Assembly: GCA_965249755.1 (NCBI GenBank)
Contig: CBDFMT010000004.1
Coordinates: forward strand, 3,371,312-3,435,311
Direction of reading: 5' to 3'
From: Ferruginibacter sp.
Lineage (GTDB): Bacteria > Bacteroidota > Bacteroidia > Chitinophagales > Chitinophagaceae
DNA: 64,000 nucleotides
Position 1 is the first letter of the stretch, and each line of letters begins with the position of its first letter. The position numbers were made by a program, and so were the translations under genes. Under the pieces are notes generated by a model that searched no databases, was not told the origin of the DNA, and saw only the letters and a list, made by a program, of their open reading frames with translations. Shown here one piece after another: positions 36,697 through 44,040 of this stretch.

Positions 36697-36840
36697 AATC
36701 GTTTACAAATATTTTGTAATAAAGTTAAATGTAGTGCAGGGATATTTATTAACTGTCCTGCTGTTACAGCAGGATAGTGGATATCATTTCGTTTATTGCT
36801 TTAAAGATGATATTAGTATTGGTTTTTTACCTGCTTTTGA

Positions 36841-38889
36841 GGATGTGTAGGCCTTTTTAACCTCAATTATTTTGCAGGTGATTATGCAGCCATCAGCGGG
36901 GCAATAGCCTTTCCCGGCCACAGTGCCTATATGCCCAACCCGGCCGATAACCGGCCGTTGTACAATGGCAATATCAGCAGCATGGCAACGGCCAGTGTAA
37001 ACTTTCCGGGTGCCACCGCAGAGAAGCAGCCACAGTTGTGCAATTACAGTTACGACCAGCTCAACAGGATAACCGGTATGGATGTGTACCGGTGCACAAC
37101 CCTTAACACCAATAGCTGGAGCGGCATGGTGGCCACCGGCGATTTTAAGGAACGCATGGCCTACGATGCCAACGGCAATATTGTAAAATACCTGCGCCAG
37201 GGCTTTGGCAGCAACCTGCCCATGGACAGCCTTAGCTACAACTACACCTACAACAGCGGCAAACTTGTTAACAACAAACTCAATTATGTAACCGACCAGA
37301 TTAATGGCAGCACAGCCCACAGCACCAACTATACCGACGATATAGAAGACCAGGCAGCAGGCAATTATGTATACGACCGGATAGGCAATTTAACAGCCGA
37401 TGCCAAAGAAGGCGTTACCAATATTACCTGGAACGTGTATGGTAAAATTAAACAGGTGCAGAGAACGGCCACTGCGGCCAACCCGGTAACCAATATTAAA
37501 TACACCTACGATGCAGGCGGCAACCGCATCAGCAAGCAGGTAACCAAAAGTGCGGCAGACTCTGTGGAGTACACCTGGTATGTAAGGGATGCCAGTGGTA
37601 ACATTATGACAACCTATTTTGCCAAAGGTGCGCCCAATGGCACTATAGCCAGTACCACCGCCAGTTTATTGCTTACCGGCCAAACCATGTATGGCAGCAG
37701 CAGGCTCGGTGTTGTAAACCGCAATGTGGATGTAAAGCCATTGTTTACTAATGGTAACCTGGTTAACTTTACCAGGGGCAATAAGTTCTTTGAGTTAACC
37801 AACCACCTGGGCAATGTAATGGAAACCATCTCCGATAAAAAGACGGGGGTAACCACCAACGGCACCAGCATAGATTATTATTACAGCGAGGTAATAACCG
37901 CCAACGACTATTATAGTTTTGGCAGCCAGATGCCGGGCAGGCAATACAAGCTGAATGCAAACTCATACCGTTATGGGTTTAATGGTAAGGAGAATGACAA
38001 CGATGTTAAAGGCGAAGGCAACCAGCAGGATTATGGGATGAGGATTTATGACCCGAGGTTAGGGCGCTTTCTTTCTGTTGACCCGTTGGCAAAATCATAT
38101 CCTTGGTTAAGCACGTACTCTTATGCCGAAAATAATCCAGTAAACTATATTGATTTAGATGGATTAGAAACACCTGTAGCTCCTGCCCAGGCAACCCCAA
38201 CATTATATGAACCGGCAATTTATTTGCCTGAAGGAGAAGGCTTAATACAACGTACAGCCCGGCCATTAAGTTTAAATCCAGACTATGCGCCAATACCAAT
38301 GCCTGGTAATGCAACCGGAGTTTATAAAGTAGATGAAAATACTGTTATTGTTACAGGAGTTAATGGAAATAGTTGGTACGAATCAACAACAGTTCCGGCA
38401 TTTAAACCAACACGAATAGATTTTTCAGTACCCCAAGGACAGTTTAAAGTCGATCTTCAGCAAGTTGTAAATTTTAAAAATTCAATTTACTCTGAACATC
38501 AAACACCGTTGCCAGTAGACCAAAAACCATTAACTAATTATTCTCCTGTCAATCAAACAACGAATAGTAAACAATCTACTTCAACTCAACAATCAAATAA
38601 TTCCGGCAACATTTATTTAGTTCGTTTTGGGCCACCAGACGATAAAGAAAAACTTACCACTCAATCATCGGCCGCAGAAAAAAACCCAGACTTTGGACAT
38701 GGAGTTTCTACAAAAATGAAAACAAAGGTTGGAGGTAACGAAAGAGCTGCGCTTTTATCCGAAGTATCGAAAGTTTTCAAAGTAAAGAAAACGGGAAAAG
38801 ATCCTAATCATTATACTGTAATTCTTCCAAAACCGATTACAGAAGAAGTCACAAAAAAGTTTAATGCAATTTTTAAAACGAAAAATTAA
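36841..38889 (+). pseudogene. 5'-truncated Rhs protein: core C-terminal part plus intact toxin tip
   Basis: Frame opens after TGA at 36838-40 in mid-domain sequence (NLNYFAGDYAAISG...LYNGNISSM). Rhs motifs ELTNHLGNV, RYGFNGKEND, DYGMRIYDPRLGRFLSVDP, NPVNYIDLDG. GC drops after DLDG (spot counts: line 37081 about 60%, line 38461 about 32%). Confidence 0.82.
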
Positions 38890-38892
38890 AAA

Positions 38893-39340
38893 ATGGATAA
38901 GGATATTTGAAATCTATAAAAAAAACGTTGGAAAAAAAACCTTCTTTGTCGATATCGAAATTGTTGATTGGTATGATAGTCCAATATCAGGCTTTGCGAA
39001 AATTAGAAATTTAAATGAGGGATGTTTTTTTTTTATAATAGCATGGGATTTAAAATCTGATGATAAAGTATTTATATTTATAAATGTAAGTTTAGCTTTT
39101 ATAAAACAATGGAAAACAAAAAATAATAAGATTGAGTATGATGAAATGAAAAAGACTCTTTTTCAAATTGTTTAAAATAATACAACTCAACCTTATTTAT
39201 ATAAATCCTCAAATTTATATTCTTTAAATTATGTCATTAAAGAATATACCAATAAAAAAATATATTTTATAGATAATATTGAGGATGTAGTTAAGCAAAA
39301 AAGTAGCAAAACTTTAAAGTGGTTTAAATATTTTAATTAA
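38893..39340 (+). pseudogene. Putative immunity gene for Rhs tip 1, disrupted
   Basis: ATG 4 nt after the toxin stop; extra base within the first codons (ATG GAT AAG G ATA TTT); in-frame TAA at 39173-75, after which the frame continues NNTTQPYLY...WFKYFN to TAA 39338-40. Confidence 0.6.
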
Positions 39341-39545
39341 ACCCTCGTTTGGCGCAAGCATGTCGGGCAGGTTAAGAGCGTTGGCATGCTTGTGCAAGGG
39401 GAGCAACCACCCGCTGGCGCATGAATGAAGCGGGGGCAAAGCGGCAAAGGTTTCCTGTGCCTTGCTACCTATAACAAATTAAATTAGTTAAGCCCCCGAT
39501 AAAAATCGGGGCAGGCTATCAGTTGTAACAAGCTGGTGGTTTTTT
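39341..39545 (+). repeat. REP-like hairpin cluster A (two units plus an 18-21 bp mini-palindrome)
   Basis: GGCGCAAGCATGTC...GGCATGCTTGTGC (39351-39395); TGGCGCATGAA...TTCCTGTGCC (39415-39461); GCCCCCGATAAAAATCGGGGC (39492-39512). 39411-39545 is roughly 80% similar by eye to 42503-42640. Confidence 0.8.
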
Positions 39546-39563
39546 TATTTACAAACCTTTAAT

Positions 39564-39730
39564 GTATCCCCTCCACCAACCCCTTGTTTTCTTACAAATC
39601 ATAGTGCTGCACCTTTGCCGCTATGGAAAATACAAATGTAGCAGAGACAATGCGATTTCATATTGAAGCCTGCAAAGTAAGTGGCATTAGTGCAAAGGCT
39701 TACTGCCTTGAGCATCAGATAAAACGTTCC
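39564..39730 (+). mobile_element. IS66-like left-end remnant with truncated tnpA (orf1)
   Basis: ATG 39623: MENTNVAETMRFHIEACKVSGISAKAYCLEHQIKRS resembles the IS66 TnpA N-terminus (..SG.S...fC..h.i); it breaks off at a REP unit. Putative terminus GTATCCCCTCCACC at 39564. Confidence 0.5.
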
Positions 39731-39732
39731 GT

Positions 39733-39947
39733 CCCCCACTGGCGCAGGAATGAGGCGGGGGCAATGTGGCAAGGGTTTCCTGTGCCTTGCATACTGTAGC
39801 AAATTAAAAAAAGTAATCCCCCTATTGGCGCAAGTAACCTCGTTTGGTTCAAGCATGTCGGGAGGGTTAAGTGCGTTGGCATACTTGTGCCGTACAACAA
39901 AAAGCCCTGGCAAATTTTTGTACAGTCAATGCCGCAAACAAAATAAT
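39733..39947 (+). repeat. REP-like hairpin cluster B (left flank of RAYT)
   Basis: 39733-39842 is an identical 110-bp copy of 42392-42501; 39838-39947 is a near-identical copy of 43747-43856. Confidence 0.85.
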
Positions 39948-40009
39948 ATGCAATTTAAAAGTTGTACAATTTGGTAAAAAGGGCATCAGCATTTTTGAAG
40001 CTTTAAACC

Positions 40010-40568
40010 GTAGGCCGTAAATATAAATTTTGGGATAGCAACAAAATGTACTTCATCAGTTTTGCCGTTATAAACCGGATAGGGTTTGTTTACCAGAAAT
40101 GAGTATAAGACGAACTGATAAAAAGCTGGCTGCATTGCCAGCAAACGAAAGGGCTTACAATATATGCCTGGTGTATAATGCCAAGCCATATTCACATGGT
40201 TATAAGCAGTAAGGATAAGCTTTTGGAAGATATTGTAAGGGACAGGAAAAGCCATACTTCATCGGTATTAAAAAAGCTGCTAAAAGAACATCCGCAGGAA
40301 AACAGAAAAGAATGGATAGTATGGATGATGGAACGGGCAGGTAAAAAGAAACAGTAATATATTAACTGGTCCCGAAGGCTTTCGGGAGCAACAGCATAAC
40401 CAGCCTATTGAAATATTAAATCGGAAGATGTATGCAGAGATGATGTTGTACATCCATCAAAACCCTGTAGCGGGCGGCTTAGTGTACGAAGCCGAACAAT
40501 GGATTTACAGCAGTGCAAAACACTATGCAAAAAACGATGGTATCATTAAACTGGCTGAATTTAACTAA
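40010..40568 (+). pseudogene. REP-associated tyrosine transposase (RAYT, IS200-like Y1 HUH) pseudogene
   Basis: Not in ORF track. Spliced across frameshifts: GRKYKFWDSNKMYFISFAVIN..LFTRNEYK-DELIKSWLHCQQTKGLTIYAWCIMPSHIHMVISSKDKLLEDIVRD...QENRKEWIVWMMERAGKK..QQHNQPIEI...YIHQNPVAGGLV...WIYSSAKHY. Contains HUH (HIH), Y..NP and YSSA motifs. Confidence 0.85.
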
Positions 40569-40595
40569 CCTACATGTTACATTACAAACCAAAGA

Positions 40596-40642
40596 GGCAC
40601 AAGGATGCCAACGCACTTTAGCTGCCCGACAACCTTGCGCCA
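40596..40642 (-). repeat. REP-like hairpin in inverted orientation (right flank of RAYT)
   Basis: Reverse complement reads TGGCGCAAGGTTGTCGGGCAGCTAAAGTGCGTTGGCATCCTTGTGCC, the same unit as 39351-39395. Confidence 0.85.
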
Positions 40643-40803
40643 ATAAGGGGGCGTAGCCTGTAAAGCGATGAGGATGATTTTTTTCTTTCAACTGAAAACA
40701 ACTGAAAAAAAAGCTGCTATCTTAGGGGCTGCGGACAGCAAAAGTTCTTTGATTAAAGCAGGTGCAAGCGGTTTTAAAATGTTGGAAAAATCAAGGTTCG
40801 GGG

Positions 40804-41915
40804 GCATATCGTTATGGATTTAACGGACAAGAAAAATCGGACGAAATTAGTGGCGAAGGTAATGCGTATAACTTCGATGCAAGGATGTATGGATCCAAGG
40901 ATAGGCAAGTGGTTTTCAACAGACCCTAATAGCAAAGCTTTTTCCAGTCCATATAATTATGTACAGAATAACCCTGTAAACAGGATTGACCCTGACGGTA
41001 AGGACGACATCCATTTTTATTTCGTTACCAATACGGCTTCTAAGACTTATGGGATAGGTGTAAGCCAAAGAACGGTAACCCATGTAACCCATTCGAGTTT
41101 TGTATACATAGAAAAAAATGCAGGCCCTGACAGGTTTTATAATCACAGGGTATCAAACGGAAAAGACAAGACCAAGGAGTTTTACCCTTTTGATTTAAGT
41201 AGTCGTACCGGCATTACTCAAAGCTATGCTCCTTTTAGTTTTGGTTTAGTCAGTAGAAATGATAGGGTTGTACATACCCTTGCGAAATATTATGACGCAT
41301 CACCTGCTTTTAAAAATTATTTGGATGCCCGTCTTAAGGACCCGAGAGTAACGGGTACTCAAAACGGAAATGATTACAAGAATACGTTTTTCCCAAACAG
41401 GGCAAATTTCAACTTTTGGAGCACCGTTTCATCAACTGCAGAAACTGCTGCAAATTTGCTGATATTAGCAGGAGGCTCTTTAAGTATTATGTCAAGGACT
41501 GCTTCAGCGGATGCTTTTGCAAGTGGTGGTACCAAATTGATGTCATCTGCTCAAATATCAGAATTTCCGGGAAGTGCAACATTTGGAAAACCTATCGGTA
41601 CATTCAAAATTGAATTAATTGCGCCGACTGCAGAAGTAAATAGTCTATTTTCGCAAGGAATAGGTAGAGCTGAAATTGCTACAAGGCTGGGAATAACAGA
41701 CCCCGCATTTTTAGAAGGTACATTGATACGAATAGATGTGAACCCAAGTACATTAAAGTCATTAAATTTAAGGGCGCCTTACGGGTACAGAAGTTGGAGC
41801 CAATAGCACGTTTGTACCAGGTGGTAAAACTGTTGGAGGGGTTACAGAAGGAGTTGTAAATGGGATTCCTACAAGTGGAGCAGGGGTATCGACATCCACT
41901 ATTCCTAAATTGTGA
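40804..41915 (+). pseudogene. Orphan Rhs C-terminal toxin cassette with two +1 frameshifts
   Basis: Starts at AYRYGFNGQEKSDEISGEGNAYNFDARMY, extra G near 40891, then DPRIGKWFSTDP...NPVNRIDPDG. Extra T near 41780 hides the true end TGTEVGANSTFVPGGKTVGGVTEGVV...PKL (TGA 41913-15). Confidence 0.8.
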
Positions 41916-41934
41916 TATATAGTAACATAAAAAT

Positions 41935-42316
41935 ATGGATAAAAAAAATAGTGATTCTTTTTTAATTCTATGTAAAGAAATTGATTTAGATGGAGTAACT
42001 CCTCCCCCAAATAAATCAAACCGAAATAATGAAAAGTATATAAAACTTATTGCAATTGCAAAAGAATACTTTAAAAATGAAGAATATGATGAATTTGCAG
42101 GGTTCTTTATGGAGGGGCAACATTTTATTCAATTATGGGCGGCTCATTTAATACTTGAGTCATGGAAGTCCAACGGAAGATTTAAAAATTAGGAGCATAA
42201 GTGTAATTAAAAAATATTCTAATAATCCTTTGGCGCCTGAAGTTGCAAAAGAAGAAAGGCAATGGATAAATGAAAATGCAGAAAAGTATAAAGATGTTTT
42301 ATCAAATCTACCTTAA
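41935..42316 (+). pseudogene. Putative immunity gene for Rhs tip 2, one +1 frameshift
   Basis: MDKKNSDSFLILC...WAAHLILE; removing the T near 42160 continues HGSPTEDLKIRSISVIKKYSNNPLAPEVAKEERQWINEN...LP to TAA 42314-16. Confidence 0.6.
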
Positions 42317-42363
42317 GTGCAAAAATATAAATGCCATAGCCACCGGTTGTAAAGAACCAGTGG

Positions 42364-42640
42364 CCTCACCTGGCGCAGGAATGAGGCGGGGCCCCCACTG
42401 GCGCAGGAATGAGGCGGGGGCAATGTGGCAAGGGTTTCCTGTGCCTTGCATACTGTAGCAAATTAAAAAAAGTAATCCCCCTATTGGCGCAAGTAACCTC
42501 GCCCGTCTGGCGCAGGAATGAGGCGGGGGCGATGCGGCAAAGGTTTCCTGTGCCTTGCCCACTATAACAAATTAAAAATTAGTAAAACCCCCGATAAAAA
42601 TCGGCGCAGGCTACCAGTAGTAAAAATCTGCTGGTTTTTT
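42364..42640 (+). repeat. REP-like hairpin cluster C (four TGGCGCA heads, two truncated, plus a mini-palindrome)
   Basis: TGGCGCA at 42371, 42399, 42485 and 42508; CCCCGATAAAAATCGG near 42589-42604. Confidence 0.85.
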
Positions 42641-42968
42641 TATGTTACAACGCTTTTAATAAGGTTTTGAATTTCTTTATCGGAGAGATTATCAATATCG
42701 CCTTTGTTGTAGATGGAAAAAAGCAGTACGGTGGTAGCAGTAATTTTTACAAAAGACAACACCCTGGCACCACCAGACTTGCCTTTGTTTTTAGAAGCAA
42801 TAGCCAGGCGTATTTATAAATATCGTTGCCCAGCGGTGTACCCATGGTAGGGTTTGTTTCCAGTTCGGTAAACAGTGCAGCAAGTTCCTGCTTTAAAAAA
42901 GGGAATTTTTTAATAAGCTTTTTGGCTTCCTTTTTAAAGTTGGCAGAAAGTTCAATTTTATAACTCAT
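42640..42968 (-). pseudogene. RelE/ParE-family type II toxin, -1 frameshift
   Basis: MSYKIELSANFKKEAKKLIKKFP.LK..L..L...P.MG.PLGNDIYK; adding one A near 42812 restores IRLAIASKNKGKSGGARV...LFSIYNKGDIDNLSDKEI to the stop at 42640. Confidence 0.82.
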
Positions 42969-43173
42969 TCAAAAAATCTTTAGCAGGGGTGGTTTTTAAT
43001 TTTCCTTTTTTAAAAAGTTTTACTTCCTGCAGCCCGGCTTTTATGTTTTGTAAAACCTGCTCTTTGGCAAGTTCGTCAGCAGCTTCAATTTTTTTTACAA
43101 ATTGTAAACTCTTGGCCAGCTCTATAAAAAACGGGTAGTTGCTATCGGGTATGTGTAAGGTAACCTGTTTCAT
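42958..43173 (-). CDS. Putative antitoxin partner of the RelE-like gene
   Basis: 71 aa, MKQVTLHIPD..YPFFIEL...KDFLNEL; overlaps the toxin start by 11 nt. Confidence 0.65.
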   Translation of the reverse strand: MKQVTLHIPDSNYPFFIELAKSLQFVKKIEAADELAKEQVLQNIKAGLQEVKLFKKGKLKTTPAKDFLNEL

Positions 43174-43200
43174 TATTTTTATTTTAAAAGCGTTTTCAAT

Positions 43201-43575
43201 TTATACGGCATAAGCTTGTTTAGCCCTGTAATCCCTGACATAAGCAGAGATGATTTTTATAAGAACGCCTTGTTCTTCTTCAGGCAACGTATCTACTTCT
43301 TTAAAGCGTTGTATCAGTTCAGAATTTTTTAATGAGGCTTTAGCCTTCTCATTCTTATCACCACTAATCAAATAATCAACAGAGGTTCCAAGAGCATCAG
43401 CCAGCTTATTCATAATGTTGGCAGGTGGTTGTACATCTTTGGTCTCATAACGAATGTATTGAGATTTAGAAACCCCGATTTTTTCTGCCAGTTCAATCTG
43501 CGTTAACCCTGCCTGCTTCCTTAAAACTTGTACTCTTTCTGCAAATATCTCTTTCGTTTTAGATAATTTTTCCAC
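43201..43575 (-). CDS. XRE-family HTH transcriptional regulator
   Basis: LRKQAGLTQIELAEKIGVSKSQYIRYE...P...L.KLADALGTSVDYL; TACTTTTG box at 43577-84 directly upstream. Confidence 0.88.
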   Translation of the reverse strand: MEKLSKTKEIFAERVQVLRKQAGLTQIELAEKIGVSKSQYIRYETKDVQPPANIMNKLADALGTSVDYLISGDKNEKAKASLKNSELIQRFKEVDTLPEEEQGVLIKIISAYVRDYRAKQAYAV

Positions 43576-43663
43576 ACAAAAGTACCTTATGCAGAACTTA
43601 TTTTTAAGGTTTAAGTGCCTTATTGTGAATAAAATTAAAAATGCGTATTTTATTAGGTGTCAG

Positions 43664-43856
43664 CCTGGCGCAGGGCACTGTCCTGTTGCCCTTTGTTAAT
43701 GCTCTTTGTAAAGGGTGATGTTGCCCAGTATTGGCGCAAGCATGTCCCTCGTTTGGCGCAAGCATGTCGGGAGGGTTAAGTGCGTTGGCATACTTGTGCC
43801 GTACAATAAAAAGCCCTGGCAAATTTTTGTACAGCCAATGCTGCAAATAAAATAAT
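43664..43856 (+). repeat. REP-like hairpin cluster D
   Basis: TGGCGCA at 43666, 43732 (truncated) and 43754; 43747-43856 is near-identical to 39838-39947. Confidence 0.85.
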
Positions 43857-43921
43857 TGCTGATTTAAAACCTGCCCTGCCCCTAAGCTTCCTGCCTTTAC
43901 CAAATGCATTTTGAACCCGGA

Positions 43922-43965
43922 AATTAAAAACCGTAAAGGCAATAGTAACTAATGCCTTTACGGTT
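43922..43965 (-). terminator. Intrinsic terminator of tRNA-Arg
   Basis: 13-bp stem AACCGTAAAGGCA/TGCCTTTACGGTT followed by a T-rich tract on the minus strand. Confidence 0.85.
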
Positions 43966-43968
43966 GGG

Positions 43969-44040
43969 TGGTCCCGACAAGAATCGAACTTGTGTCTAAA
44001 GTTTAGGAAACTTCTATTCTATCCACTGAACTACGGGACC
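43969..44040 (-). tRNA. tRNA-Arg(CCT)
   Basis: GGTCCCG acceptor / CGGGACC-A; D arm GTTC-AGTGGATA-GAAT; anticodon arm GAAGT-TT CCT AA-ACTTT; T arm ACAAG-TTCGATT-CTTGT; CCA not encoded. Confidence 0.96.

Follow-up and report, generated by a model that had tools for sequence, protein, structure and literature searches.

The closest described counterparts of the repeats treated here are REP/RAYT elements, or REPtrons (Nunvar, 2010, PMC2817692; Ton-Hoang, 2012, PMC3333891; Bertels, 2017, PMC5581495), and among these the Bacteroidetes TnpA-Y1 subclass 2.6 (Quentin et al., 2018, PMC6006769). The E. coli enzyme TnpA-REP cleaves between CC and T and transfers strands in vitro (PMC3333891), and REPs influence mRNA stability and termination in Enterobacteria (PMC3333891, PMC2817692). 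According to their description in PMC6006769, IS200/IS605 and TIRYT/TIRtron elements have hairpin or inverted-repeat ends that are recognised single-stranded (Di Nocera et al., 2013, via PMC6006769). Toxin arrays are known as orphan rhs-CT/rhsI modules and arrays of C-terminal displacement (Poole et al., 2011, PMC3150448; Koskiniemi et al., 2014, PMC3967940), and as the rAID-1 (recombinase-associated acquired interbacterial defence) arrays of orphan immunity genes in Bacteroidales, which have been likened to integrons (Ross et al., 2019, bioRxiv 10.1101/471110). None of the REP/RAYT papers cited here (PMC6006769, PMC2817692, PMC3333891, PMC5581495) describes an association with Rhs arrays.

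The window analysed is a 64,000-nt stretch of a Ferruginibacter sp. genome. Positions 36842-43966 are most likely what decay has left of a second Rhs toxin locus, adjacent to a tRNA-Arg(CCT) gene. This island is paralogous to the main Rhs locus, situated 1.04 Mb away on the same contig (C4), and has four segments in common with it. It contains two orphan tip/immunity modules, a scrap of IS66 and a toxin-antitoxin/XRE block, separated by repeats:

36842-38889, plus strand: orphan Rhs fragment 1 (TIGR03696, 59 bits)
38864-39340, plus: putative immunity gene 1, assigned by position
39342-39395, plus: REP A1, CCCTCGTT linker and A hairpin, without pre-head
39408-39560, plus: B1 block, B-type hairpin (39415-39461), terminator-like hairpin and T-run
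39623-39732, plus: 5' fragment of an IS66-family tnpA (NF047593, 28.3 bits)
39733-39842, plus: B'1 block, B REP, 30-nt spacer, A-type pre-head (TTGGCGCAAGTAA) and CCTCG
39843-39891, plus: REP A2, left-end hairpin of the REPtron
39960-40570, plus: RAYT (Y1 HUH) pseudogene, HIHMV and YIHQNP motifs kept
40596-40643, minus: REP A3, right-end hairpin of the REPtron, inverted
40676-41915, plus: orphan Rhs module 2, with leader, core end and tip CT2
41935-42316, plus: putative immunity gene 2, frameshifted
42362-42389, plus: partial B head, copy one of a 28-nt tandem duplication
42392-42501, plus: B'2 block, ending in pre-head and CCTCG, after which a B REP replaces the A hairpin
42502-42656, plus: B2 block, B REP and terminator-like hairpin
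42660-42968, minus: relE-family toxin gene, frameshifted (PF06296, 33 bits reading through the frameshift)
42958-43173, minus: putative antitoxin, intact ORF, named from its position only
43201-43575, minus: XRE-family HTH regulator of the relE-antitoxin-XRE block
43659-43725, plus: C-type end, a diverged solo end of the genome's second, IS-like RAYT family
43724-43869, plus: A-type left end A4, with pre-head, CCCTCGTT linker and hairpin (43753-43800)
43967-44040, minus: tRNA-Arg(CCT), right island border, synteny conserved

The core piece of Rhs fragment 1 (36842-38085) shares 95% identity with the main Rhs gene (C4:4451628-4452869), so that homologous exchange is possible; after it comes a C-terminal toxin tip, CT1, which is unique. 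Immunity gene 1 has a GC content of 24% and its frame is broken by an in-frame TAA at 39173; family searches with either putative immunity gene returned no match. Rhs module 2 carries at least two frameshifts; it has its leader in common with the orphan at the main locus (82% identity to C4:4460570-4460759). A further stretch around the XRE gene (43199-43662) is 92% identical to C4:4462588-4463052, also within the main Rhs locus. Altogether, RAYT, immunity-1, Rhs2, immunity-2 and relE are pseudogenes and tnpA is truncated. As in described rhs-CT/rhsI systems, core-end fragments with the Rhs-associated core motif are combined with variable tips and small, low-GC immunity genes; unlike them, the island is 1.04 Mb distant from the full-length gene, consists largely of pseudogenes and has its modules separated by REP/RAYT elements. 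Like rAID-1, it is an array in a Bacteroidota genome in which repetitive sequences lie between orphan immunity genes or toxin fragments, but its genes are in both orientations and mostly broken, it has no recombinase, and its repeats are HUH-type hairpin ends instead of the rAID motif. The tRNA-Arg side was found to be variable in every species of the genus examined.

The repeats are genuine REP/RAYT elements. All 12 exact TGGCGCA heads reported in the original prediction are present, 11 on the plus strand (39350, 39415, 39740, 39826, 42371, 42399, 42485, 42508, 43666, 43732 and 43754) and one on the minus strand (40636), as are the C-rich tracts 5' of them. The whole window contains 25 copies of TGGCGCA, compared with 11.9 +/- 3.2 in shuffled sequences; since the genome-wide density is 0.19 per kb, about 0.8 would be expected in the 4.4 kb that hold these 12. 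Complete copies fold as predicted, GGCGCA pairing with TGTGCC through one G-T wobble. The heads had been treated as a single motif; instead, they belong to three related REP-like kinds, A, B and C, which have the foot (C)TGGCGCA...TGTGCC in common and were not found elsewhere in the 64-kb window. Kind A is a 48-nt hairpin; the genome has about 15 copies of it, some in ordinary gaps and some next to RAYT remnants. Kind B is a second hairpin with an identical foot, found in this genome only in the window and at C4:4470160; in other Chitinophagaceae, intact RAYTs are bordered by B-type heads, which also occur as REPIN-like doublets. Kind C forms the ends of a second RAYT element that is present in several copies (4 copies, 14 ends in the genome). 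Outside the fixed foot, the stem shows covariation (GGAA/TTCC, AGTA/TACT, AGAT/ATCT, AGGT/ACCT) in a set of 95 distinct copies taken from many genomes; 73 of them form stems of at least 9 bp, compared with 46 on average and 55 at most after shuffling of the partners.

The A-type element is a REPtron, composed of a bipartite left end (pre-head, 8-nt linker, hairpin), the frameshifted RAYT gene and an inverted right hairpin. The predicted inverted flanks were recovered as a pair of hairpins at 39844-39891 (plus) and 40596-40643 (minus), which are 81% complementary. As the head of the REP directly upstream of RAYT reads TGGTTCA and not TGGCGCA, the exact head at 39826 is the pre-head. Such pre-heads are kept in five diverged copies elsewhere in the genome, and three of the four truncated heads formerly interpreted as scars turned out to be this conserved part of the left end. 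The RAYT itself contains several frameshifts and stops and scores 57.8 bits against the REP-associated profile NF047646, under the cut-off of 80, compared with 22.5 bits for IS200. No intact cognate was found in the genome, where the nearest paralogue is 34% identical. Fragments of this RAYT occur at three loci, indicating IS-like past behaviour rather than a fixed single-copy gene, and its second copy is damaged within the same 10-nt stretch, which suggests that the break predates block copying.

In several respects the element resembles known REPtrons: a Y1 HUH gene encoding H-x-H and YIHQNP motifs is surrounded by inverted imperfect hairpins, which have a conserved 5' tract, include a mismatch or wobble and are also copied elsewhere in the genome. 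The low copy number and “atypical secondary structures” recall subclass 2.6 (PMC6006769). It differs from REPtrons in having only about 20 REPs, half of them within two Rhs loci, a bipartite left end and a dead RAYT with IS-like fragments at three loci. As far as IS200/IS605 and TIRtron elements are characterised in PMC6006769, the absence of target duplication and several gene copies per genome are likewise in common, and the second RAYT family, with its C-type ends and four copies, behaves similarly. Unlike in IS200/IS605, tnpB is absent, the protein scores as REP-associated and no insertion target can be defined.

Three recurring blocks noticed earlier are real, with lengths of 110, 142 and 155 nt. 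The 110-nt repeat (39733-39842 and 42392-42501) is 100% identical between its copies and 99% identical to C4:4470160-4470268, the 142-nt repeat (39823-39960 and 43729-43869) shows 90% and the 155-nt repeat (39410-39560 and 42502-42656) 86% identity. A4 includes about 70 nt of the RAYT upstream region with no RAYT following. The proposed position of REPs at cassette borders was borne out: all five between-module gaps are filled and none of four within-module positions is. The REP A1 head lies 10 nt past the immunity-1 TAA (39338-39340), the partial B head 55 nt past the immunity-2 stop, the tnpA fragment stops exactly where B'1 begins (39733), and the relE-antitoxin-XRE block has B2 on one side and the C-type end on the other. 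Several homology breakpoints coincide with the C-tract 5' of REPs, at 39733/4, 42501/2 and 43662. At two junctions, one joining TAAA, CCCTCG and an A hairpin at 39336 and the other joining pre-head, CCTCG and B at 42497, the pentamer CCTCG at the REP foot is retained and one flank swapped. At the left island edge, homology breaks off within the Rhs core; a GATGTGT microhomology is present there, but no REP.

Mapped genome-wide, REPs are very strongly over-represented in the two Rhs loci of this genome, which hold about half of its approximately 20 copies; the expected enrichment did not extend to other genomes, where 1 of the 45 REPs that could be compared lies at an Rhs end. In relatives carrying the window's REP family (G121, G082, G113), the sites are ordinary intergenic gaps. 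RAYT genes are significantly linked to Rhs-immunity pairs across Chitinophagaceae. In 28 genomes, 11 of 123 RAYT matches were located no more than 3 kb downstream of an Rhs core end, compared with 0.62 expected (18-fold); these 11 are spread over 9 of the genomes, and a RAYT directly behind an Rhs-immunity pair occurs in 9-10 of 28 genera. The linked RAYT is usually the first gene past the immunity gene, an order checked at loci L060-L064 and L089-L093, and most linked RAYTs bear their own inverted hairpins. At least four RAYT subfamilies have independently come to occupy this slot, and the paired fraction amounts to only about 6-9% of Rhs ends and RAYTs. Tyrosine recombinases were also observed just upstream of orphan Rhs arrays in this family.

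The original prediction held that RAYT nicks ssDNA 5' of REPs, at their C-tract or foot, and rejoins the ends, thereby stacking unrelated modules into an integron-like toxin array. The REPs are indeed real, located at borders and concentrated in the Rhs loci of this genome, but no sign of RAYT-catalysed stacking was found, and we consider this scenario unlikely. It would account for the exclusive placement of REPs between modules, the breakpoints at their 5' feet, the tnpA cut, the recurrence of CCTCG with either flank swapped and the excess of several RAYT subfamilies right behind Rhs-immunity pairs, and it has a precedent in the in vitro activities of TnpA-REP. However, the decay of nearly all genes in the island, the dead RAYT without an intact cognate, a second copy suggesting breakage before copying, and the identity of three of four supposed scars with the pre-head speak against it, as do the REP-less left edge, two of five Rhs tip modules in the genome without REPs, the small paired fraction and the lack of enrichment among comparable REPs of other genomes. 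Sharp breaks at REP edges are equally expected from REP insertion or homologous exchange; moreover, the island contains no integrase or attC-like sites, and its cassettes have their own leaders and lie in both orientations. That assembly errors in a repeat-rich region produced the identical 110-bp repeats and the stacked partial heads, as the 100% identity of two copies might suggest, is highly implausible, given a nearly closed genome (one 4.82-Mb contig and three small ones), unique coding sequence flanking each copy, a third copy with 99% identity and other flanks 1.06 Mb away, and the recurrence of the architecture in independent genomes.

Between the two Rhs loci, the REP block is 98.8% identical and the RAYT remnant 90.8% (p = 2e-4); together with the complete identity of B'1 and B'2, this better conservation fits conversion between REP blocks. 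It could also reflect function, with REP blocks kept by selection after immunity genes as host terminators, mRNA stabilisers or insulators, and the terminator-like hairpins and T-runs of B1 and B2, the position of REPs 10-55 nt past stop codons and the enterobacterial effects mentioned above agree with such a role. Yet the genes to be served are pseudogenes, making selection on their expression unlikely, and full identity over 2.6 kb of distance fits recent duplication or conversion better; this account appears quite improbable. We think it rather probable that the island represents a second Rhs locus in decay, colonised by REP/RAYT elements that later served as recombination tracts, and not an integron-like machine. 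The CCTCG junctions sit uneasily with this reading, as they resemble fixed-site cutting and joining more than homologous exchange and the pentamer includes the CC-T site of TnpA-REP (PMC3333891); the same applies to the B' block, joined at an identical base to three unrelated left flanks, and to the occupation of the post-immunity slot by at least four subfamilies, which passive clutter explains poorly.

According to the colonisation model, the array itself would have been built by known Rhs processes, namely tip displacement via core homology, followed by decay, while hairpin-ended Y1-HUH elements of three related kinds would have settled in the decaying locus. RAYT-catalysed cutting at the REP foot would be historical at best in the island. 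The REP blocks may then have provided portable homology on which RecA-type recombination, gene conversion and deletion could act between Rhs loci, so that the material between the blocks would be shuffled and truncated. RAYT elements may settle or survive preferentially just 3' of immunity genes, or may travel with tip cassettes.

The island between position 36842 and the tRNA-Arg(CCT) gene (43967-44040) is composed of objects of known kinds, an orphan Rhs array and a REPtron, i.e., a REP-associated transposase (RAYT) gene bracketed by inverted REPs, and represents a largely dead example of them. It contains the following elements, in which A, B and C denote three related REP-like kinds:

Rhs fragment, N-terminally truncated, tip open (TIGR03696, 59.1 bits)
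Putative immunity gene, low GC, with an in-frame TAA
IS66 tnpA scrap of 37 codons
39960-40570, RAYT gene, dead
Second Rhs core end with tip, at least two frameshifts (TIGR03696, 34.9 bits)
Second putative immunity gene, frameshifted
relE, frameshifted
Antitoxin-like ORF and intact XRE gene
39349, 39844 (head TGGTTCA), 40596 (minus strand) and 43753, REPs of kind A
39415, 39740, 42399 and 42508, REPs of kind B, plus a 22-nt partial copy at 42371
43666, REP of kind C
39733-39842 and 42392-42501, recurring block of 110 nt, 100% identical
39823-39960 and 43729-43869, recurring block of 142 nt, 90% identical
39410-39560 and 42502-42656, recurring block of 155 nt, 86% identical

The immunity roles of the small downstream genes are putative and derive from position and low GC content; neither these genes nor the Rhs toxin tips (CT1 and CT2) matched a family in Pfam or NCBIfam. 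Five Rhs core ends exist in the genome. The full-length Rhs gene (2777 aa) is located 1.04 Mb from the island at C4:4445361-4453694 (positions on the 4.82-Mb contig), within a main Rhs locus (C4:4445361-4470610) that also comprises two further orphan modules, two tyrosine recombinase pairs, a primase and an integrase. Four island segments are paralogous to this locus: an Rhs core piece (95%), the leader of module 2 (82%), the XRE block (92%) and the B'-A-RAYT 5' block (94%). The left edge of the island is a break inside the Rhs core with 7 nt of microhomology and without a REP, which is what would remain of a formerly complete second Rhs gene after deletion of its 5' part. In a comparison with C4:4470160-4470610, 1.06 Mb away, the REP block at 39734-39905 is 98.8% identical, whereas the adjoining dead RAYT sequence (39906-40186) is 90.8% identical to the main locus (p = 2e-4 for the difference), and the two copies of the REP block within the island are identical. 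These values point to exchange among REP blocks by conversion or recombination; the excess identity requires either gene conversion or a selective constraint acting on the hairpins. In the main locus itself, the tyrosine recombinase pairs are tandem near-duplicates (L002 1677-3406 and 9946-11672 in the fetched locus, C4:4457676-4467671), and the primase (L002 7143-9863) and an XRE gene sit among the orphan modules, a composition that hints at integrative elements or at a recombinase system of the rAID type within the main Rhs array.

All 12 exact TGGCGCA heads named in the original prediction were found in their places, and its three recurring blocks are real. The heads lie within 4.4 kb, compared to about 0.8 expected from the genome-wide density (914 occurrences over 4.85 Mb, 0.19 per kb), and the whole window contains 25 TGGCGCA motifs versus 11.9 ± 3.2 in shuffled sequences. 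Searches with the repeat units revealed no further copies in the other 57 kb of the window. As the tRNA is the sole Rfam match, the REP repeats correspond to no catalogued RNA.

The 12 heads sort into the three kinds, and the REP feet of the island read TGGCGCA...TGTGCC. Kind A forms an imperfect 48-nt palindrome (TTGGCGCAAGCATG...CATACTTGTGCC) with a 12-bp stem and one G-T wobble, kind B shares the foot of A and differs in its interior (CTGGCGCAGGAATGAGGCGGGGG...GGTTTCCTGTGCC), and kind C is a diverged end of the second RAYT element of the genome. In a set of 95 distinct copies taken from many genomes, stem base pairs outside the fixed foot covary, and 73 of the copies possess stems of at least 9 bp, compared to at most 55 with shuffled partners; the folding energy taken alone is unexceptional (z = -0.2 to -1.9). 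The exact 19-mer of the B head is present in 47 stretches of Chitinophagaceae genomes, where it forms the inverted flanks of intact RAYTs (45-53% identical to the window RAYT) and REPIN-like inverted doublets about 115-130 nt apart. Judging by this distribution, the B head is a genuine REP of the protein family of the window RAYT. A separate palindrome (TGTCCTGCTGTTACAGCAGGATA) at 36740-36790, upstream of rhaT, has GTCCTGCTG in common with the C-type RAYT end, which may be due to chance.

The gene between the A hairpins at 39844-39891 (plus strand) and 40596-40643 (minus strand), which are inverted and 81% complementary, is a Y1-HUH RAYT pseudogene. Its HIHMV and YIHQNP motifs, a pattern of TnpA-Y1 subclass 2.6 of Bacteroidetes (PMC6006769), are kept when read across its frames, while several frameshifts and stops interrupt the gene. 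This broken state explains why its score against NF047646 (57.8 bits) does not reach the cut-off of 80. Intact homologues at three loci of other genomes (L051, L030, and L036) exhibit the same inverted-REP bracketing. Remnants of the window RAYT were found at three loci (the window, C4:4470534 and C4:455118) and the genome contains no intact cognate. As the window and main-locus copies are both damaged inside one 10-nt stretch, the block may have been copied only after the enzyme had died. In contrast to this A/B family, a second RAYT family with C-type ends looks currently mobile; it comprises four gene copies and 14 ends (CTGGCGCAGGACTCCGTCCTGCTGCC), among other places at C4:25676-29000, 1787608-1789257 and 4816229-4817878 outside the window, forms an IS-like unit of about 720 bp, and is partly arranged in tandem with additional solo left ends. 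Three of the four genes are intact (185 aa) and encode nearly identical proteins. Right-type A REPs at C4:566109-566215, 570632-570740 and 670199-670305 are each directly followed by a common sequence (cttcgcctggtgcatatgggggg...), which adjoins copies or fragments of a transposase-like ORF (MQFIQGNNRHQTYFTTPDDQ...); by analogy to IS1397-type elements, this unit may be an insertion sequence targeting the REP.

Several heads had been described as truncated, and a reading of them as scars of repeated nicking was considered. This did not hold for 39826, 42485 and 43732, because the same pre-head (CCC..TAT TGGCGCAAGTAA) and 8-nt linker also precede the hairpin of diverged A copies elsewhere in the genome (C4:1785264, 456177 and 1708050). 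The recurrence of pre-head, linker and full hairpin at these copies indicates that the A-type left end is bipartite. Similarly, the head at 42371 is not a scar, being the first unit of a 28-nt tandem duplication. A real break is located at 42501/42502, where a B REP instead of the A hairpin comes after the pre-head and CCTCG, and the A copy starting at 39342 carries a CCCTCG linker and hairpin without pre-head and abuts the stop codon of the first putative immunity gene. These two junctions show that CCTCG is retained where either flank is replaced. The sequence recurs 5' of young A copies and is absent 5' of older ones. For the E. coli TnpA-REP, in vitro cleavage at CC|T and strand transfer were described (PMC3333891), and the CCTCG junctions fit RAYT enzyme action, without proving it.

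The original prediction also placed REPs at the borders of Rhs cassettes, which is supported in this genome and not in others. About half of the roughly 20 REPs of the genome, which in a REPtron would be many and dispersed between genes, are located in the two Rhs loci that make up roughly 0.5% of it, and three of the five tip/immunity modules of the genome are followed by a REP at most 60 nt past the stop codon; this enrichment is real but not independent, as several copies duplicate one another. In the island, a REP is present in each of the five gaps that separate modules and in none of the four gaps inside modules; the latter are too short to hold one. As a family-wide rule, the enrichment was rejected: of 45 comparable REPs in other genomes, a single one is situated close to an Rhs end. 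The motif TGGCGCARG...CYTGTGCC is present in 10 of 28 Chitinophagaceae genomes at 1-23 copies each, which cluster near RAYTs and between ordinary-looking genes, and the 9-23 REP copies of relatives are locally clustered in ordinary gaps.

An integron-like array was rejected as a reading of the island, both from its sequence and because an integrase is absent. Integrons possess an IntI-type tyrosine recombinase and attI beside the array; a Pfam scan of the island ORFs found no PF00589 match, and genome-wide none was within the window coordinates, the nearest listed being in the main locus (C4:4458027-4472729). Instead of attC sites (R''-L''...L'-R' with GTTRRRY) located 3' of promoterless, co-oriented cassettes, the island exhibits the REP feet, cassettes with their own leaders, and a toxin-antitoxin/XRE block on the opposite strand. 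A rAID-1 system is defined by at least two co-oriented low-GC genes with a XerD-like recombinase 5' of them that shares at least 44% identity with BF9343_RS08045; no recombinase is located in the island, and the main locus has two XerC/D-like pairs. [quoted passage not shown] The imperfect palindrome with conserved 5' tract and covarying stem, the inverted hairpins and the Y1 HUH gene with HUH motif and catalytic Tyr (here a pseudogene) agree with a REPtron. In contrast to its single-copy, immobile RAYT, however, remnants exist at three loci and the second family has four copies. An IS200/IS605 assignment yields 22.5 bits (NF033573) versus 57.8 bits for the REP-associated model; elements of that type have subterminal hairpins and, at the left end, a defined target of four or five nucleotides, compared to which CCTCG precedes the young A copies and not the older ones.

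The tRNA-Arg(CCT) gene next to a TPR gene is a variable junction across the genus (loci L077-L084). The tRNA-Arg-TPR side is conserved in other species, and each of the six species for which ORFs were read has different content past the tRNA. None of the eight loci fetched from relatives carries rhaT, Rhs, RAYT or XRE there. One of them contains a serine-recombinase element, in which a large serine recombinase gene (L077 1106-2671, genome G013, contig C4) overlaps the end of the tRNA, and a series of same-strand genes comes after it. DNA searches of 40 relatives with the B+A block yielded one weak B-like REP and otherwise no match, and exact-protein look-ups of XRE and CT2 returned no match.

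A wider survey covered 28 Chitinophagaceae genomes (27 genera), chosen solely for having at most 30 contigs and matches to both families; counts refer to the matches listed (best 150) and expectations to random placement. Eleven of the 123 REP-associated transposase matches listed, from nine genomes, lie at most 3 kb from an Rhs-associated core motif (0.62 expected). All are downstream, eight of them at 1.0-1.9 kb, a bias partly forced because the side upstream of a full-length Rhs end is coding, and 11 of 14 matches listed within 10 kb share the strand of the Rhs gene. Among the tyrosine recombinases listed, which served as control since DDE_Tnp_1 had too few matches (23 in the 28 genomes), four of 149 are located at most 3 kb away (0.78 expected), for the most part immediately 5' of orphan arrays in a rAID-like position. 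The order Rhs - immunity - RAYT was read in seven genomes (G047, G059, G084, G109, G121, G123, and G144), RAYTs at array ends in two (G101 and G133), and further cases in metagenome genomes (L029, L041, and L020). This order is found in roughly one third of the well-assembled Chitinophagaceae genomes and involves several RAYT subfamilies, at least four of which are found behind Rhs-immunity pairs. Own inverted hairpins or terminal repeats are present at four of five such RAYT loci scanned, and in G109, indicating that these RAYTs are elements inserted behind the immunity gene. The affinity of RAYT/REP elements for this slot is real, and only about 9% of RAYT matches and about 6% of Rhs ends among those listed are paired. 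No mention of this gene order was found in the literature, and it is apparently undescribed.

Two loci of the survey show particular layouts. In G101 (L061, G101:C9:148000-162656), ten or more orphan Rhs tip/immunity modules, encoded on both strands, converge on one RAYT; a conserved leader of about 240 nt opens each module and, rather than RAYT hairpins, separates the modules, and a different hairpin (CAGCAACGTCC...GGACGTTGCG) follows two immunity genes. In G109 (L060 6745-9273, contig C15), an Rhs-immunity pair is directly followed by two RAYT units that are nearly identical, measure about 830 bp and have terminal inverted repeats of 70-77 nt. A small lipoprotein-like gene lies between the units, and a further right end and a RAYT from a different subfamily come after them, which makes a cassette-like layout punctuated by RAYT elements.

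The presence of RAYT/REP elements in the island is real, and the simplest account is a decaying second Rhs locus that was colonised by them, whose REP blocks may afterwards have served as portable homology for conversion or recombination. Alternatively, RAYTs could have built the array by cutting and joining at REP feet, as originally proposed. Breakpoints at REP edges do not discriminate between these scenarios, as they are expected from REP insertion, REP-REP exchange and enzymatic joining alike. Enzymatic assembly is considered unlikely, and is kept alive by the CCTCG junctions and by the Rhs-RAYT synteny of multiple subfamilies. In its broader form, which appears similarly doubtful, Y1-HUH RAYTs and their hairpin ends would be a working part of Rhs tip turnover in Chitinophagaceae, with an exchange unit of core-end handle, tip, immunity gene and REP/RAYT, and a single-stranded DNA cut at the foot of the REP (in this island CC|TCG, which lies between the pre-head and the hairpin) would start or resolve cassette insertion, excision or truncation.

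If this were true, RAYTs would gain a role in the diversification of polymorphic-toxin arrays. Two open questions meet here, namely the purpose of RAYTs and the gain and displacement of Rhs tips and orphan immunity genes, and the recurrent gene order Rhs - immunity - RAYT is possibly new. Should the link be only a landing or survival site, it would call for caution against taking REP clusters for recombination machinery and would still be a useful marker of Rhs array borders; should it be mechanistic, it would provide a testable model of cassette exchange in polymorphic toxin systems.
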